Source of the DNA: an uncultured Candidatus Saccharibacteria bacterium
Lineage (GTDB): Bacteria; Patescibacteriota; Minisyncoccia; Phycocordibacterales; UBA918
Assembly (NCBI GenBank): GCA_964576905.1
Contig: CAZNWG010000003.1
Location: forward strand, 1-42,978
DNA: 42,978 nucleotides
Reading direction: 5' to 3'
Positions 1 to 40,423 of the stretch are shown here, one piece after another. Under the pieces are notes generated by a model that was not told the origin of the DNA, ran no database searches, and saw only the letters and a list, made by a program, of their open reading frames with translations. The number at the start of each line of letters is the position of its first letter. Position 1 is the first letter of the stretch. The position numbers and the translations under genes are program-made.

Positions 1-51
1 TGGTGGTGGCGGAGGAGGCGGTGCAATCTAAAAGTGACGGACATCCGAAGC

Positions 52-82
52 AAAATTATGGACATCGGATGTCCATAATTTT
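52..82. repeat. REP-like palindromic element, copy 1. Core ATGGACATCGGATGTCCAT at 58-76, with arms extended to AAAATT...AATTTT.
   Basis: Perfect 15-bp arms around one central base, read directly from the sequence. The same 19-nt core recurs at 588, 788, 28026 and 39799. The element lies 8 nt downstream of the transposase stop codon (91-93). A degenerate half-copy (GACGGACATCCGAAG) sits at 37-50. Confidence 0.9.
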
Positions 83-90
83 GCTACTTG

Positions 91-795
91 TTACTCGAGG
101 GTCACACCACTCAGGTGGAGCATATCGAATTTTTTGAGATACGACTGCAATGCTTTTGTGTAGCCATCCGTACCTCCAAAATAGTTGAGAAAAAATGTTC
201 GGTCGGTGACTGAAGCAAAGTTACTTGTGCCACTGTAGTCGAGGTGGCTACTCCACTTGTACTTTGAAAGTAATTCCTCGACGTGTTCTAGAGAAGGGAT
301 TTCCCCCTTGCGCCACTCTGGTGTGGTGAGGTCGAGTGGATTGAGGTGAATATAAAAGGGAAGATACATGAAGTGCGCATCTGAGGTGACGTGAACTGAT
401 TTGTACTTACCTTGGAAGAGTGATCCAGAGCGTTTGTATCGCTCGTTGAAATACTTTGCGTATCCCATATTTATTTTTTTCATAAAGAGAGATACCCCAC
501 CTTCAACGAGCGGGGAGAGCATGAGGTGGTAGTGATTTGGCATGAGACAAAAGAAGTGTATCTGCACCAACTGCTCACCACGAGAATATGGACATCCGAT
601 GTCCATATTTCTTGCGTTTTCTTTATTATAGCGATGGTTCGGGTCTACTCGTTCGATACTATTAAAAACTTCAAGATCATGGATAAATCGTTGATAGTCA
701 CGTGAATCCATAAAGATTTTGCGTTTCTCAACACCACGATTGAGTACATGATAGAATTCTGTTTGCATAGTGTGTAGTGTACCATTTATGGACAT
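91..795 (-). CDS. RayT / IS200-like HUH (Y1) tyrosine transposase (REP-associated transposase family)
   Basis: The translation contains YHVLNRG near the N-terminus, the HUH motif in CLMPNHYHLML and the catalytic-Tyr region FYIHLNP. The ORF-track entry 91..1116 has a 107-aa low-complexity N-terminal extension that overlaps dnaE in another frame, so I trimmed it to the ATG at 793-795. An alternative ATG at 766-768 would give MQTEFYHV.... Confidence 0.8.
   Translation of the reverse strand: MSINGTLHTMQTEFYHVLNRGVEKRKIFMDSRDYQRFIHDLEVFNSIERVDPNHRYNKENARNMDIGCPYSRGEQLVQIHFFCLMPNHYHLMLSPLVEGGVSLFMKKINMGYAKYFNERYKRSGSLFQGKYKSVHVTSDAHFMYLPFYIHLNPLDLTTPEWRKGEIPSLEHVEELLSKYKWSSHLDYSGTSNFASVTDRTFFLNYFGGTDGYTKALQSYLKKFDMLHLSGVTLE
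585..609. repeat. REP-like palindromic element, copy 2 (core at 588-606), located inside the transposase coding sequence
   Basis: AATATGGACATCCGATGTCCATATT read directly. It is translated in frame on the minus strand as NMDIGCPY, between the N-terminal motif and the HUH motif. Confidence 0.9.
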
Positions 796-809
796 CCGAT
801 GTCCATAAA
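785..809. repeat. REP-like palindromic element, copy 3 (core at 788-806), between the dnaE stop and the transposase start
   Basis: TTTATGGACATCCGATGTCCATAAA read directly. The candidate transposase ATG (793-795, minus strand) lies inside one arm. The dnaE stop codon is at 815-817. Confidence 0.9.
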
Positions 810-814
810 TTCTA

Positions 815-4057: not shown

Positions 4058-4119
4058 AGTTTATATACAATTGAAATGAATCTTCTTTTTCGGTATTAAC
4101 TTTTTATGGGCACGCATAA

Positions 4120-4157
4120 GCCCCAAAATTAAAATCGAGAGATTTTAATTTTGGGGC
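4120..4157 (+). other. Orphan 17-bp stem / GAGA-loop hairpin in the divergent dnaE-rnhB intergenic region
   Basis: GCCCCAAAATTAAAATC-gaga-GATTTTAATTTTGGGGC followed by TTT. No upstream gene on either strand ends here. Confidence 0.6.
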
Positions 4158-4249
4158 TTTGCTCTACTCGTCGCTGTTACGCGACTCCGTAAGGCCCCTA
4201 AAAAGTTATACCTCAACGAAGATTTCAAAACATATTGTATAGTAGATAA

Positions 4250-14145: not shown

Positions 14146-14390
14146 GGATAGCGAAGTTAGCCGGAGCCATGTTTTGTCTATTCATAATGACAAAACAGGC
14201 GAGGCAGGGCAGGAGGTTCTTAGTGAGCGAAGCGAACTTAGAAACCTGCGCTGAGAATCTAAATTGGCGAATTGCGTCGTTGCGGTTCGGTAAAATGACA
14301 GTCGTCGTATTCTTATACGTCTTCTGTCATTTTCCTCCCGCGCCTCGCACTTCATCCAATTTCGAGTTCTCAAACTTCGCAAGGTAAAAA
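14146..14390 (+). ncRNA. Candidate structured non-coding RNA or structured leader, family unknown
   Basis: No credible ORF. There are two nested long-range helices: 14151-14158 GCGAAGTT with 14373-14380 AACTTCGC, and 14199-14205 GCGAGGC with 14342-14348 GCCTCGC. These enclose four local hairpins (14170-14197, 14215-14246, 14268-14289 and 14292-14333). The 14268-14289 stem has three G-U wobbles that only pair on the plus strand. The region ends at a strong terminator. Confidence 0.4.
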
Positions 14391-14437
14391 GCAAACACAA
14401 AACCCGCGCGCCGACGGCGCGCGGGTTTTGTGTTTGC
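14391..14437. terminator. Very strong bidirectional terminator hairpin (22-bp perfect arms)
   Basis: GCAAACACAAAACCCGCGCGCC-gac-GGCGCGCGGGTTTTGTGTTTGC. Confidence 0.8.
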
Positions 14438-14508
14438 TGTATAGAGCATAGAAACATTTACTTCTATACCCAGTAATACAGCTAATTTACAATTCTCAAA
14501 TAAAAACC

Positions 14509-14548
14509 CTATGCAAAACCTTCCATTCGAATGGAAGGTTTTGCATAG
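14509..14548. repeat. 40-nt perfect palindrome
   Basis: CTATGCAAAACCTTCCATTC|GAATGGAAGGTTTTGCATAG read directly. It lies upstream of the Nudix gene. Confidence 0.85.
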
Positions 14549-25715: not shown

Positions 25716-25885
25716 AGGGTGATCCACGAAGGATCCTGCTTCGTTTTCATGACGCTTCCTTTCAGAGTAGCGGACATGCCCCACCAAAATCAGTGGTTTT
25801 CAAATTATAGCAGAAAATGCCACGTACACACAATTCAGGAACGTATATGGACATTTTTGAGTTTTAGGGTATAGTTGCAGATATT

Positions 25886-27181
25886 ATGGCAAAAAAGGTG
25901 GTAGCACAAAAGAAAAAAGTAGCAAAAAAGTCGCCTGCAAAAAAGGCGATTATTAAGTCAGCGCCAAAGAGACAGGTTGCACCAAAAAAAGCACCTGCTA
26001 AAAAAGTGGCCAAAAAAGTTGCCGTCATAAAGAAAAAAGTTGTCGCCAAAAAAGTGGCACCAAAAAAAGCACCCGCTAAAAAAGTTGTCACTAAGAAACT
26101 TTCAAAATCAGAATTACTGCAAGAGCATAAAGCAAGCTCACTTTTGACTCTGGGAAGAACACGTGGATATGTGACATACGATGAAATACTCAAAGAGTTC
26201 CCACAGGTGGAACGCGATATTACGTTCCTCGAAAATCTCTATGAGCGTCTCGCGACTGCGAGTATTGATATTATTGGCGGTGGTGGTATGCTCGGTGATG
26301 AACAAGACAGTGGGCTTCTCGATCGAAAGAATGTATACAAGCGCAGTGATAGCGCGTACGACTCTATTCAGATGTACCTGCGCGAAATCGGCCAGTACCC
26401 ACTCCTCACCGCGCACGAAGAGCGTGTGCTTGCGAAGCGTATCGTCGACGGTGACACCGAAGCGCGTAATCTCCTAGCGCGCGCTAATCTCCGCCTCGTC
26501 GTCTCGATTGCAAAGAAGTACGTGGGGCGCAGTCCCGACCTCACTTTGCTCGACCTCATTCAGGAGGGGAACCTCGGACTCTTTAAGGCCGTCGATAAGT
26601 TTGACTTTACGAAGGGTTTCAAGTTTTCGACCTATGCGACGTGGTGGATACGACAGGCAATTACTCGTGCTTTGGCCGACCAGTCACGCACCATTCGCAT
26701 TCCCGTACACATGGTAGAAACCATGGCGAAGTACAAGCAGGTCGCCCGCCGTCTCGCGCAGGACTTAGGCCGTGACCCGATGGCGGAAGAGATTGCGACC
26801 GAAATGGATGTGGAGGTGGAGAAAATCTACCAGATTGAAAAAATCAGTCAGGACACTATCTCGCTTGAGCTCCCGATTGGGGACGACGATGACCGCTCAC
26901 GTCTCTCAGACTTCATTGCGGATGACAAGATAATGTCTCCCGATCAAGAAGTTGCCCACCGCATCCTTGCCGACCAGATGCAGGAGATACTCGAATCGCT
27001 CTCCGAAAAAGAGCGAAAGATTCTCGAGATGCGCCACGGACTCCTCGATGGTACATACCATACCCTTGAAGAGGTGGGTAAAGAGTTTGGCGTCACCCGC
27101 GAGCGTATTCGACAGATTGAGGCAAAGGCACTCGAGAAGATACGCCAGCACGACAAGGCGAGGAGGTTGAAGAGTTACTAA
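25886..27181 (+). CDS. rpoD: Primary RNA polymerase sigma factor (sigma-70 family), with a Lys/Ala-rich basic N-terminal tail
   Basis: Regions 1.2-4.2 are recognisable ([63 protein letters not shown]). It sits downstream of dnaG, as in the classic dnaG-rpoD arrangement. Confidence 0.95.
27096..27181 (+). repeat. Direct repeat A (86 nt): the last 28 codons plus stop of the expressed rpoD
   Basis: Identical to 27936-27993 over the first 58 nt. There are 7 mismatches in the last 28 nt, all synonymous. Confidence 0.95.
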
Positions 27182-27279
27182 TTGTTAATTAGGATTACTT
27201 TATCAATTTGTTGAATCTTGTATACTGTAATTAAATTAAGTTGTAGAGTTACGCATGATTAAATATTTGAATAAATTAT

Positions 27280-27498
27280 ATGAAAGAATATACAAGTTTT
27301 ACACTTAGATTGTTTAAAAAACAGAAAACATCACCATTTATTGAAGGAATGGCTTCTATTCTTGACAATTCAAATTCTGATTATAAATACAATTTTGACA
27401 AAACTGATTCTGATGCTGATAGAAAATCTATACAAGCAGATTGGAAACAAGTTGGTGCAGATTTACAAACTGTTATGATGCAACATGCCACAAAGTGA
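27280..27498 (+). CDS. Hypothetical small protein (72 aa), first gene of the insertion cassette
   Basis: An ORF in AT-rich DNA whose 3' end overlaps the downstream ORF's start by 14 nt. Its C-terminus reads DRKSIQADWKQVGADLQTVM. No family is assigned with confidence. Confidence 0.5.
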   Translation: MKEYTSFTLRLFKKQKTSPFIEGMASILDNSNSDYKYNFDKTDSDADRKSIQADWKQVGADLQTVMMQHATK

Positions 27499-27916
27499 AA
27501 AACAAGATGAAGGTGTTGAGATTGTTAAAGAACAACGAGCATCGTCTGAGCAACAACTTGTATCTGCAGAATATTACGAAGGCATCATACCTCACCCACG
27601 CCTAATGAGAGAATGGGAAGAAGTGGTTCCTGGTTCAGCAGACTCTATTTTTAAGCGTTTTGAAGAGCAGTCCAAACATCGTATAAAAATTGAAGAAAAG
27701 GTTGTTGGTGCAAATAACTTTAAACTCATTATTGGTCCGATATTTGCATTCATCATTGCGATGACAACTATTGGCGGTGGTATTTGGATTGCTTTAGCAA
27801 CGCCAACAACAGCTGGAGCAATATTGGGAGGATTTTTAACCTTATCTGGATTAGGTACTGTCGTCACTCCATTTCTCGTGACAGAGTTTAGAAAGAAAAA
27901 AGAAGATAATAGCTGA
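27485..27916 (+). CDS. DUF2335-like membrane protein (143 aa, two predicted C-terminal TM helices)
   Basis: YEGIIPHPRLMREWEEVVPGSADSIFKRFEEQSKHRIKIEE resembles the conserved DUF2335 N-terminal block as I recall it (P-P..L..Y....PG.a..I....E.E..HR). Two hydrophobic segments follow (IIGPIFAFIIAMTTIGGGIWIAL and GAILGGFLTLSGLGTVVTPFLV). Confidence 0.6.
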   Translation: MPQSEKQDEGVEIVKEQRASSEQQLVSAEYYEGIIPHPRLMREWEEVVPGSADSIFKRFEEQSKHRIKIEEKVVGANNFKLIIGPIFAFIIAMTTIGGGIWIALATPTTAGAILGGFLTLSGLGTVVTPFLVTEFRKKKEDNS

Positions 27917-27935
27917 ACTATTAAAGGACTTCTAG

Positions 27936-28021
27936 CCCGCGAGCGTATTCGACAGATTGAGGCAAAGGCACTCGAGAAGATACGCCAGCACGATAAGGCG
28001 CGGAGATTGAAGTCGTACTAG
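27936..28021 (+). repeat. Direct repeat B (86 nt): an orphan second copy of the rpoD 3' end, with no upstream rpoD sequence
   Basis: Encodes the same peptide (..[27 protein letters not shown]) as repeat A, using different codons for D, R, R, S and the stop. A REP hairpin and a terminator follow it. Confidence 0.95.
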
Positions 28022-28048
28022 AATTATGGACATCCGATGTCCATAATT
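28022..28048. repeat. REP-like palindromic element, copy 4 (core at 28026-28044)
   Basis: AATTATGGACATCCGATGTCCATAATT followed by TTTTT. It starts 1 nt after the TAG of repeat B. Confidence 0.9.
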
Positions 28049-28052
28049 TTTT

Positions 28053-39068: not shown

Positions 39069-39157
39069 AGGGCTATTGTAGCAGAGTCGAGCGTCATGTT
39101 TCTCACTAATACGTTGACTGTTGATACAAAATTTTGCGCGCGCGGTATACTGGTACC

Positions 39158-39748
39158 ATGCTTAAGCACAAAACACTCTCATGGCTCCTTGTGGGCTATG
39201 CCGTACTTTTTACCATCCTCGCATTTAATCCTGTCGATAGACCAACATGGTTTGTCGAAAATCTCACGGTGTGGATAATCCTTGCGGTGATACTCATTCT
39301 CTACGCGCGGGGTATTCGTTTTTCTTCAGTTGCGTACATACTCATGTTTGTGCTCGTGTACCTGCACACCATAGGCGGACACTACACCTTTGCGCTTGTG
39401 CCATTTGACTACGTCACCAATTTCTTTGACTTCGAGCGCAACCACTTCGACCGTATCGCACATTTCTCGGTCGGTTTCTACGCGTACCCCGTGGCCGAGT
39501 GGCTCTACACGAAACGCCTCGTCGCCAACAAATTCCTCCTCTTCACCTATCCCGTGTTTGTCATTGCGACTGTCGCAATGAGTTACGAACTCATAGAATG
39601 GATATATGCTGCACTCGCCAATCCAGAAGCGGGCATCGCGTATCTCGGAAGTCAGGGCGATATATGGGACGCGCAGAAAGACATGCTCGCGGATACGCTC
39701 GGCGCGCTCATCGCGACAACTGCATATGTGTGGCACAAACGTATGTAG
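39158..39748 (+). CDS. DUF2238 (YjdF-like) inner membrane protein
   Basis: A multi-TM protein with YLHTIGGHYTF..VPF and a conserved GSQGDIWDAQKDM block, which I recall from the YjdF family. I trimmed the start to the ATG at 39158. Confidence 0.65.
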   Translation: MLKHKTLSWLLVGYAVLFTILAFNPVDRPTWFVENLTVWIILAVILILYARGIRFSSVAYILMFVLVYLHTIGGHYTFALVPFDYVTNFFDFERNHFDRIAHFSVGFYAYPVAEWLYTKRLVANKFLLFTYPVFVIATVAMSYELIEWIYAALANPEAGIAYLGSQGDIWDAQKDMLADTLGALIATTAYVWHKRM

Positions 39749-39767: not shown

Positions 39768-39792
39768 ATGGACGACGTCCGACGTCGTCCAT
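39768..39792. repeat. Variant REP-like palindrome (ATGGACGACGTCCGACGTCGTCCAT)
   Basis: It has the same terminal ATGGAC...GTCCAT and central TCCGA as the main family, but a different and longer inner stem. It directly abuts copy 5. Confidence 0.8.
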
Positions 39793-39823
39793 AAAAATAT
39801 GGACATCGGATGTCCATATTTTT
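39793..39823. repeat. REP-like palindromic element, copy 5 (core at 39799-39817)
   Basis: AAAAATATGGACATCGGATGTCCATATTTTT lies between convergent genes. Its central base orientation matches copy 1 and is opposite to copies 2-4. Confidence 0.9.
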
Positions 39824-39847: not shown

Positions 39848-40423
39848 TTAGAAGGGGAGAGAGAACGTCATTGAATTATCCTTTTCAGCGACCCAATTTG
39901 CGGTATTGAGTAAGACCTCACGTTTCTTTGTTCCGTCTTTGTAGAAAATTTTTTGATTTGCAAGGGCGTATTCGAAAAGCTCTTTCGTGACTTTCACATC
40001 TTGCTTGCAGTACTTCTTGATAGAGGCAATGTCGCCCTCACGCCACCATTTGATCGCCATGAGGCCATTACCCATTTTTTTTGCACCGATGGTCGCTTGT
40101 GCGACCGAGTCGAGTTTGAGGCGTTTGCCCAGAGATTCACGAATCGACGCCATGATGTCGATACTCTTTATTTTGGACAGATCGCCCGGATAGTATTTGT
40201 TGAGGAGTGGAATATCAAAATGGTCGCTATTGTACCCCACAAGTACGTCCGCCTGCTCAATGACGGGCCAGAGTTTGTTGAGCTCATCATGAGCCACGGT
40301 GGTATATGTATCGGTCTCTGAGTCATAGACGCACCCCACAGATATGGAAAGGTCACGGGGGTCATTGCTCTCAACATCAGCAAAGGTGTTCTGTGTTTCC
40401 AGATCAAAGACAACGTAGCGCAT
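39848..40423 (-). CDS. DEDDy-type 3'-5' exonuclease (RNase H-like fold)
   Basis: ExoI FDLET, ExoII GYNSDHFDIPLL and ExoIII YCKQDVKVT. Confidence 0.75.
   Translation of the reverse strand: MRYVVFDLETQNTFADVESNDPRDLSISVGCVYDSETDTYTTVAHDELNKLWPVIEQADVLVGYNSDHFDIPLLNKYYPGDLSKIKSIDIMASIRESLGKRLKLDSVAQATIGAKKMGNGLMAIKWWREGDIASIKKYCKQDVKVTKELFEYALANQKIFYKDGTKKREVLLNTANWVAEKDNSMTFSLPF

Follow-up and report, generated by a model that had tools for sequence, protein, structure and literature searches.

A probable REP/RayT-type system with perfect, untagged palindromes in a genome of the candidate phyla radiation

The stretch of DNA analysed here, hereafter the window, is a contig of 42,978 nt from an uncultured Candidatus Saccharibacteria bacterium, a member of the candidate phyla radiation (CPR, Patescibacteria). 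At its left end lies the gene of a single-tyrosine (Y1) HUH nuclease/transposase resembling RayT, the transposase associated with repetitive extragenic palindromic (REP) sequences. Copies of a perfect 19-nt palindrome stand at both ends of this gene and inside it, others are dispersed in the window and in related genomes, and in homologous loci the palindrome changes with the lineage of the protein. The arrangement of REP sequences together with a transposase of their own is known from E. coli and Pseudomonas. The locus of the window is probably a REP/RayT-type system (REPtron) of a CPR/Patescibacteria genome near Kaiserbacteria and Paceibacterota, not of the canonical kind, and what would be new here is a REP/RayT-like system in CPR, a Y1 branch resembling subclass 2.1, untagged perfect palindromes and a conserved intragenic site. 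The features of the window on which this reading is built are the following.

94-768, minus strand (stop codon 91-93): gene of a Y1 HUH tyrosine nuclease/transposase, RayT-like, from its open reading frame, its match to Pfam Y1_Tnp and its fold match.
785-809 (core 788-806): upstream palindrome with the extension TTTATGG...CCATAAA; hairpin of 12 bp, z = -5.8.
585-610 (core 588-606): intragenic palindrome, encoding M55-D-I-G-C-P-Y61 ahead of the HUH strand.
49-85 (core 58-76): downstream palindrome, a 37-nt hairpin of 17 bp with a 3-nt loop.
28022-28048 (core 28026-28044): dispersed copy with TTTTTT behind it, lying 5 nt past the rpoD 3' end in its second copy.
39793-39823 (core 39799-39817): dispersed copy between convergent genes, with the plus-strand tail TTTTTATTT.
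39768-39792: variant palindrome ATGGACGACGTCCGACGTCGTCCAT (ATGGACGACGTC-C-GACGTCGTCCAT), abutting the copy at 39799, with the minus-strand tail TTTTGTTTGTT.
36-50: partial copy GACGGACATCCGAAG, adjoining the downstream palindrome; its membership in the family is uncertain.

The Y1 gene product has 225 amino acids when read from the ATG at 768, a start in register with the N-termini of its homologues; the 234-residue protein given in the preliminary description begins at an ATG within the palindrome and was not retained. The 46-nt spacer between the dnaE stop codon (815-817) and the gene start holds the upstream palindrome, the core of which lies 8 nt past that stop and 19 nt ahead of the Y1 ATG, and the extended hairpin 49-85 starts 5 nt past the Y1 stop codon. 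The protein matches Y1_Tnp in Pfam (E=1.6e-7) and, in NCBIfam, REP_Tyr_transpos (NF047646, 34 bits) and no IS200 model; the 22 relatives aligned with it likewise match REP_Tyr_transpos only. Its HUH motif is H79-Y80-H81 and its catalytic tyrosine is Y139 in YIHLNP, a class-2 Y---NP motif; H79-Y-H81 and Y139-I-H-x-N143 are invariant in the window protein and the 22 homologues, at least 90% of which also have P144. In the AlphaFold2 model (mean predicted local distance difference test score, pLDDT, of 76), a Foldseek comparison with the PDB placed first 4er8_A, the E. coli RayT with its REP hairpin (E=6e-5), the structures of ISDra2 TnpA and IS608 TnpA ranking behind it. More than 3000 full-length homologues of about 225 amino acids were found, and all source names bearing a taxon are Parcubacteria, Patescibacteria or Paceibacterota.

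The hexamer TGGACA inside the upstream palindrome is -35-like, and a promoter-like match running from 805 to 776 on the minus strand ends 8 nt ahead of the Y1 ATG, which would mean a nearly leaderless transcript. The same hexamer is part of a promoter-like site upstream of rpoD (25848-25875).

Copies of the palindrome in the window were searched with up to three mismatches, and the expectation was taken from dinucleotide-preserving shuffles (n=100). The 19-mer ATGGACATCSGATGTCCAT has five exact copies, starting at 58, 588, 788, 28026 and 39799, against a chance expectation of 0.01 (none of the 100 shuffles reached five), and no further copy with three mismatches or fewer was found in the window. 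Complementary A/T bases extend all five (GCAAAATT/AATTTTGC, AAT/ATT, TTT/AAA, AATT/AATT and AAAAAT/ATTTTT), giving full palindromes of 25-37 nt which, folded as single-stranded DNA, form hairpins with a 3-nt loop and z-scores of -5 to -10; the folding energy of hairpin 49-85 is -17 kcal/mol (z = -10.3). The inner core of the 39768-39792 variant, GACGTCsGACGTC, is the REP core of other clades of the family (L065, L089, L090, L092 and L120; L numbers denote retrieved loci).

Most of the anatomy given in the preliminary description is confirmed by these results: the five perfect copies, the longer variant at 39768-39792, the lengthening of every full copy by A/T flanks, the clustering of three copies on the HUH gene (past its stop at 49-85, inside it at 585-610 and at its start at 785-809) and the position of copies behind the stop codons of dnaE, of rpoD repeat B and of the convergent DUF2238/exonuclease pair. 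The half-sites that it had counted as family members, at 37-50 and 25845-25854, are not supported as such, single-arm near-matches outside the full copies numbering 14 in the window against about 11.8 expected. Lone half-sites, being at chance level, were ruled out as members of the family, the one at 36-50 being suggestive only through its adjacency to the copy at 58; the arm-like site at 25847 overlaps the promoter-like -35 hexamer upstream of rpoD. As for the centre base, which had been taken to give each copy an orientation, the assignment itself is correct (G at 58 and 39799, C at 588, 788 and 28026), but it is not a conserved orientation mark: the combinations of centre bases upstream and downstream of the gene differ between loci, and inverted flanking REPs are therefore not established. 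Degenerate or partial arms a few bases from full copies were noted in the window (36-50) and in L016 (~3740), L026 (~3730) and L054 (~160); such arms adjoining full copies may be what is left of doublets or of processing.

The exact 19-mer was then scanned for in one genome per species (185,579 species, 596 Gb), a collection in which about 4 matches are expected by chance (596e9 x 2/4^19). It was present in 60 stretches, 59 from 28 CPR assemblies and one from Streptomyces, and no copy was found in viral contigs. The 28 metagenome-assembled genomes (MAGs) are named Kaiserbacteria, Ryanbacteria, Harrisonbacteria, Moraniibacteriota, Paceibacterota, Parcubacteria, 'Saccharibacteria' or just 'bacterium'. 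The palindrome is thus found well beyond its own contig, and a single MAG holds as many as 12 of the stretches. A Y1 homologue accompanies it in 9 of the 60 stretches and is missing from the other 51: the 12 stretches of MAG UBA2100 hold no gene, MAG CAYZRD01 has eight copies of the 19-mer and one Y1 gene, and the window has two dispersed copies and one variant in 43 kb. The gene itself occurs once in the 43-kb window and once per retrieved locus of up to ~20 kb. The 19-mer stretches with the gene have the layout of the window: palindromes abut both gene ends in L004, L016, L018, L035 and L052, and an intragenic copy is also present in L018 and L021; the retrieved loci nearest to the window are L023 and L019.

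The bases just outside the 19-mer vary by genome yet stay complementary (atat/atat, aatg/catt, atct/agat). At the three positions next to it, 66-72 of 73 copies keep the base pair and 24-39 copies show changes on both sides, and the covariation score of 0.278 compares with 0.093 in shuffles (0 of 500 reached 0.278) and with at most 0.092 in slid-partner controls, which speaks for selection on the pairing. It was also observed that complementarity runs past the shared core into locus-specific sequence, for at least 6 nt in 26 of 74 copies and at least 8 nt in 13 of 74, where flank shuffling predicts 1.6 and 0.28 respectively; the longest extension is 15 nt. Extensions of 8-15 nt are found at L002:1656, L003:3075, L013:4579, L027:5859, L029:102, L050:1155, L018:1553 and 2289, and window 49-85. 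They may have arisen in one of two ways, the element landing in the middle of palindromes already there, or the hairpin priming fold-back synthesis or template switching, by which one flank is copied onto the other.

The association between protein and palindrome was followed in 80 metagenome loci that encode relatives of 46-56% identity, the counts covering 88 gene-bearing loci. A perfect palindrome with a stem of at least 7 lies within ~100 nt upstream of the gene in 58 of the 88 loci and within the same distance downstream in 57, over a background of 1.04 per kb. When a perfect stem of at least 7 within ~100 nt of the gene and the same 6-nt inner core on both sides were demanded together, a flanking pair was recovered in 40 of the 88 loci. 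Eighteen distinct inner cores occur over the loci and, on a neighbour-joining tree, they group by protein clade, the clade of the window protein having the core GACATC almost throughout. Examples are GACATCsGATGTC, GACGTCsGACGTC, GGTGTCsGACACC, GCTGTCsGACAGC, GACACGsCGTGTC, CGACATTsAATGTCG, GACTTgcgAAGTC and GGTTTacgAAACC. Additional copies are often found near the gene, about a dozen of them in 20 kb in L086. Such co-variation of enzyme and repeat is the hallmark of REP/RayT systems (PMC6006769). In one Y1 clade (L085, L086, L095, L097, L101 and L107) an outer module, cctgtggata/tatccacagg, surrounds varied inner cores, and this combination suggests a two-part recognition element.

The copy inside the transposase gene falls in the loop between the first helix and the HUH strand (residues 45-62), which is predicted to be disordered, its pLDDT being below 50 in the model. 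Among the 120 homologues listed, the peptide follows the base pairing of the DNA, with DI[GR]C or DV[GR]R (isoleucine with cysteine, valine with arginine) in 51 proteins and a break of this rule in 10. A perfect palindrome is present in this loop in 26 of the 88 loci, and in 18 of them its core equals that of the copies flanking the gene at the same locus. The frame in which it is read varies by locus (NDIGCR, VGHPMSH, VRHRMSH, IGVGHQ, VAVGQRQ); one loop, at residues ~47-58 before the HuH strand, carries the site across clades, each time with the local variant. The pairing-consistent variation and the differing reading frames indicate that the DNA palindrome and not the peptide is the object selected or maintained, and since the intragenic copy tracks the local REP variant, it has either been repeatedly replaced or evolves in concert with the other copies. 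In L010 (951-1376 and 1662-1865) a truncated second Y1 N-terminal fragment (amino acids 4-69) was noted on the opposite strand, which ends just beyond its internal palindrome and hints at a rearrangement at the intragenic copy.

Housekeeping genes of related genomes, though none of the window, contain the 19-mer in frame, in about 13 copies. The genes were identified by conserved motifs and include the following.

LeuRS: L014:4261 and L042:1927.
PurL: L031:5312.
PheT: L045:1186.
MurD: L024:4399.
MiaB-like radical SAM enzyme: L060:2386.
MnmA: L005:4912.
TrmD: L034:3219 and L038:6814.
Uracil-DNA glycosylase (UDG): L040:5267.

In these genes the 19-mer is read in all three frames (MDIGCP, WTSDVH and GH[RP]MSI); none of its six frames contains a stop codon. 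The palindrome accounts for the spurious open reading frames beginning MDIGCP..., which had been pointed out at the outset together with the ATG of each arm, and also for those with WTSDVH... and GHRMSI.... The changes in protein length are small. The LeuRS of L042 shows a net gain of 3 amino acids against 76 of ~100 homologues and has the same length as that of L014, comparison of the UBA2100 copy with the nearest LeuRS homologues found (at most 63% identical, the top-ranked 58%) gives a net +3 amino acids only, and the TrmD of L034 differs from the window TrmD (73% identity) by a net +3 amino acids in a variable loop. No clean 'empty site' that would mark the ends of the element was found among the LeuRS and TrmD comparisons, and between the window and L019 the intergenic regions did not lend themselves to comparison. 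Rickettsia palindromic elements are reportedly also read in frame inside housekeeping genes. With these elements and with intragenic REPs, the copies described here share in-frame read-through, tRNA synthetases included, but they are far shorter, adding 7-9 codons.

A further proposal, tentative and in our estimation doubtful, is that the intragenic hairpin is a functional cis-element, either autoregulatory or a master/template copy, kept identical to the others by enzyme-driven replacement, and that the palindrome spreads by fold-back or replacement rather than by plain insertion. Hairpin-primed or replacement spread would explain the locus-specific inverted duplications around many copies, and also why copies arising within housekeeping genes alter the net length so little, to which the absence of stop codons from the 19-mer would contribute. 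If true, the CPR-wide Y1 family of more than 3000 proteins would represent a distinct class of hairpin-propagating enzyme.

The intergenic copies of the 19-mer (n=42) favour gene 3' ends. Fifteen lie in convergent, 25 in tandem and two in divergent spacers, whereas convergent spacers make up 16% and divergent ones 17% of all spacers (p ~0.02 for the latter), and a copy lies at a median of 27 nt from the stop codon upstream of it. Most copies have an A-tract before and a T-tract after. At 39768-39823, between the DUF2238 gene (39134-39748, plus strand) and the exonuclease gene (39848-40423, minus strand), which converge, two hairpins each have a T-rich tail behind them, on opposite strands. A terminator scan scored 49-85, 584-610 and 39768-39792 (minus strand) as terminator-like. 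Some sites are conserved: the copy at 39799 and that of UBA2100 at L033:6161 both stand behind the exonuclease gene, the copy at 28026 and that of L023 both stand behind rpoD (27941-28051 aligns at 91% DNA identity), and L020 and L047 share a site between species. From position, hairpin and T-tract, a role of these gene-end hairpins as terminators, or as RNA 3'-end structures or mRNA stabilisers, is plausible.

These positions are what one would expect if the palindromes were host regulatory hairpins, bidirectional terminators or RNA 3'-end structures, kept alike by selection and gene conversion, with the Y1 protein not spreading them but only processing or resolving them, or being insulated by them. 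The preference for 3' ends, the A/T tracts beside the stem, the opposite-strand tails at 39768-39823 with their terminator-like member and the retention of orthologous sites behind exonuclease genes, though the flanking proteins are only 56% identical, all agree with such an origin. It leaves unexplained, however, that the palindrome changes with the Y1 clade, that a copy sits in a fixed loop inside the Y1 frame and that copies are read in frame in LeuRS, TrmD, MurD, PheT, PurL and UDG; moreover, at the ends of other genes of the window stand G+C-rich hairpins of the usual kind, which are not related to the palindrome. This explanation is therefore considered unlikely.

The comparison with known systems points instead to REP/RayT. 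In the REPtrons of Enterobacteria and Pseudomonas (Nunvar 2010; Bertels & Rainey 2011; Ton-Hoang 2012), as here, a Y---NP Y1 HUH gene stands between cognate palindromes, the palindrome is dispersed extragenically, mostly behind gene 3' ends, and it co-varies with the enzyme lineage; the top structural match, 4er8_A, belongs to the same group. There are also differences. Canonical REPs carry a GT[AG]G guide, whereas the element of the window is an untagged, perfectly symmetric palindrome with a 1-nt centre, and the flank consensus of 75 copies (AAAWNK-core-MNWTTT) is symmetric and paired, with no asymmetric guide. Canonical REPs form REPIN doublets, whereas single copies predominate here, doublets being represented by the mixed one at 39768-39823 and by others in L069, L096 and L130. 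REPs are otherwise species-specific, whereas one 19-nt core is common here to 28 assemblies, each the GTDB representative of another species. Finally, the host is a CPR bacterium and the 225-residue protein has an extra C-terminal helical region.

In its motifs the protein resembles TnpA_Y1 subclass 2.1 (Bertels group 1, the TIRYTs), with which it shares NHYH, FQ instead of WQ (LFQG), YIHLNP and the C-terminal 'SS' of WSSH; this likeness comes from a motif comparison with Table 1 of PMC6006769, not from a phylogeny. The median length of subclass 2.1, 238 amino acids (PMC6006769), is close to that of the window protein. According to published accounts the subclass has no REPs, and its genes stand between long inverted repeats with GGGG[AT][CG]A[CG] (PMC6006769; for TIRYTs see Quentin et al. 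2018, PMC6006769, and Di Nocera et al. 2013, PMC3733652). Neither TIRYT-type inverted repeats nor GGGG[AT][CG]A[CG] were found around the window gene, where the REP-like palindromes take their place. The nearest relative found in the plasmid collection, from Sporomusa termitida pSPTER (L141, 27838-28725; 295 amino acids, 25.6% identity over 94%), served as positive control and has 34-nt inverted repeats with GGGGTCAG, which fits subclass 2.1; its protein has a longer, helix-turn-helix-type tail that the window protein lacks. In subclass 2.4, of Cyanobacteria and Bacteroidetes, REPs lie in frame inside tnpA_REP, in a peripheral extension (PMC6006769), and intragenic REPs are known in other systems (PMC3733652). 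The cognate palindrome in frame in the transposase gene is thus shared with subclass 2.4, the site here preceding the HuH strand.

Proximity of hairpins to a Y1 HUH gene is also a property of the IS200/IS605 insertion sequences, and an autonomous element of that kind could be imagined, with the palindromes as its ends and the solo copies as leftover ends or derivatives similar to miniature inverted-repeat transposable elements. Its TnpA has the same fold and Pfam family, many loci have a palindrome directly at either end of the gene, and the truncated second gene fragment of L010 would find a natural place. However, the features of IS200 that were looked for in the window protein, a Y---Q motif and a match to the IS200 models of NCBIfam, were not found, Y---NP standing in place of Y---Q, and both 'ends' are the same self-complementary sequence, whereas IS200/IS605 has distinct left and right hairpins. 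Solo copies far exceed genes, each locus has a single gene, the gene is found at varied chromosomal sites with no duplicated flank, and REPs persist at orthologous sites. An insertion sequence is accordingly held to be very unlikely, and the claim that the protein stands apart from ordinary IS200/IS605 TnpA is upheld by YIHLNP, by the match to REP_Tyr_transpos only and by RayT as top fold match. Least probable is a conserved peptide DIGCP with an incidental DNA palindrome, the intergenic copies being unrelated, for instance operators of a dimeric regulator: DIGCP-like peptides do recur among the homologues listed and a perfect 19-bp dyad is typical of an operator, but the peptide co-varies as DNA pairing demands (51 against 10), the same predicted disordered loop holds other palindromes in other frames, identical to the local flanking copies, and operators would be expected upstream of genes when the copies lie downstream.

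Under the REP/RayT-type reading, the single-tyrosine HUH nuclease would recognise its cognate palindrome when this is folded as a hairpin in single-stranded DNA, and would cut and rejoin it. Through such cutting and rejoining the palindrome would be copied to other sites, or replaced or homogenised there, an activity that would explain the bracketing of the gene, the copy in a tolerant loop, the scatter of solo copies and the change in step with the enzyme lineage. The scattered copies collect just downstream of genes, where the hairpin and its A/T flanks are probably used or tolerated as a terminator or RNA 3'-end structure.

Several results weigh against this reading. By the strict definition of a flanking pair given above, about 40 of the 88 homologue loci are without a matching palindrome pair. 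The census of copy numbers rests on related genomes, the source genome being outside the searched collections. The in-gene copies are not clean insertions (net 0 to +3 amino acids), and a simple cut-and-paste insertion is therefore not demonstrated. The stems have ~45% G+C and the T-tract is partly paired within them, so that a terminator function is uncertain. When the PDB was searched by sequence with the family profile, ISDra2 TnpA alone was matched, weakly, and RayT was not. Lastly, the 34 bits of the window protein are below the equivalog cut-off of 80 for NF047646, and neither a GT[AG]G nor a CGTC tag was found at the foot of the hairpin in the flanks of 75 copies. The REPtron-like character proposed in the preliminary description consequently stands as regards bracketing, dispersal and co-variation, and not as regards a canonical RayT/REP pair. 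Its remark that REP/RayT systems are poorly documented in CPR-like genomes is in line with the literature searched, in which no description of RAYT/REP systems in CPR, Patescibacteria or Parcubacteria was found.

Other observations concern neighbouring sequences. In the rpoD region of the window, an AT-rich insert of ~755 bp (27182-27935) with an open reading frame for a DUF2335 membrane protein (27485-27916) has on either side an 85-nt copy of the rpoD 3' end (27096-27180 and 27936-28020), the two being 93% identical. In L023 the REP copy comes immediately after rpoD and leaves no space for the insert, which looks like an integrated element supplying a replacement rpoD 3' end. The N-terminus of RpoD (25886-26100) contains Lys/Ala-rich tandem repeats, with a weak match, below the Pfam cut-off, to HC2, a family of histone-like nucleoproteins. 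Long palindromes, perfect or near-perfect and unrelated to the REP family, occur at 4118-4159, 14385-14443 and 14509-14548; with a stem between A and T runs, the first two look like ordinary terminator hairpins. No Rfam family was matched anywhere in the window. In CPR metagenome loci, other hairpin repeat families were also seen (L061, L072, L118, L130; L079, L064): CCTGCCTGCCGGCAGGCAGG is found in four unrelated loci, and ATTCCCGY-N4-RCGGGAAT has nine copies in L079 and two in L064.

The genomes of CPR bacteria are streamlined, at ~1 Mb. On the reading favoured here, REP/RayT-type elements would persist in CPR even under strong genome reduction, and this persistence, together with a family of more than 3000 members, is an argument for a benefit from the palindromes, terminator activity being the most likely one. 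REP/RayT systems have been argued to be long-lived, vertically inherited replicators (Bertels and Rainey papers). In the related genomes the palindrome adds its 7-9 codons to housekeeping proteins as foreign sequence, and it is a likely cause of assembly breaks in CPR genomes. For the family, a TnpA-Y1 branch reported to be REP-less would now be linked to an untagged, perfectly symmetric type of REP, and the basis of hairpin recognition by the enzyme could be worked out from the natural co-variation of protein clade and hairpin sequence.

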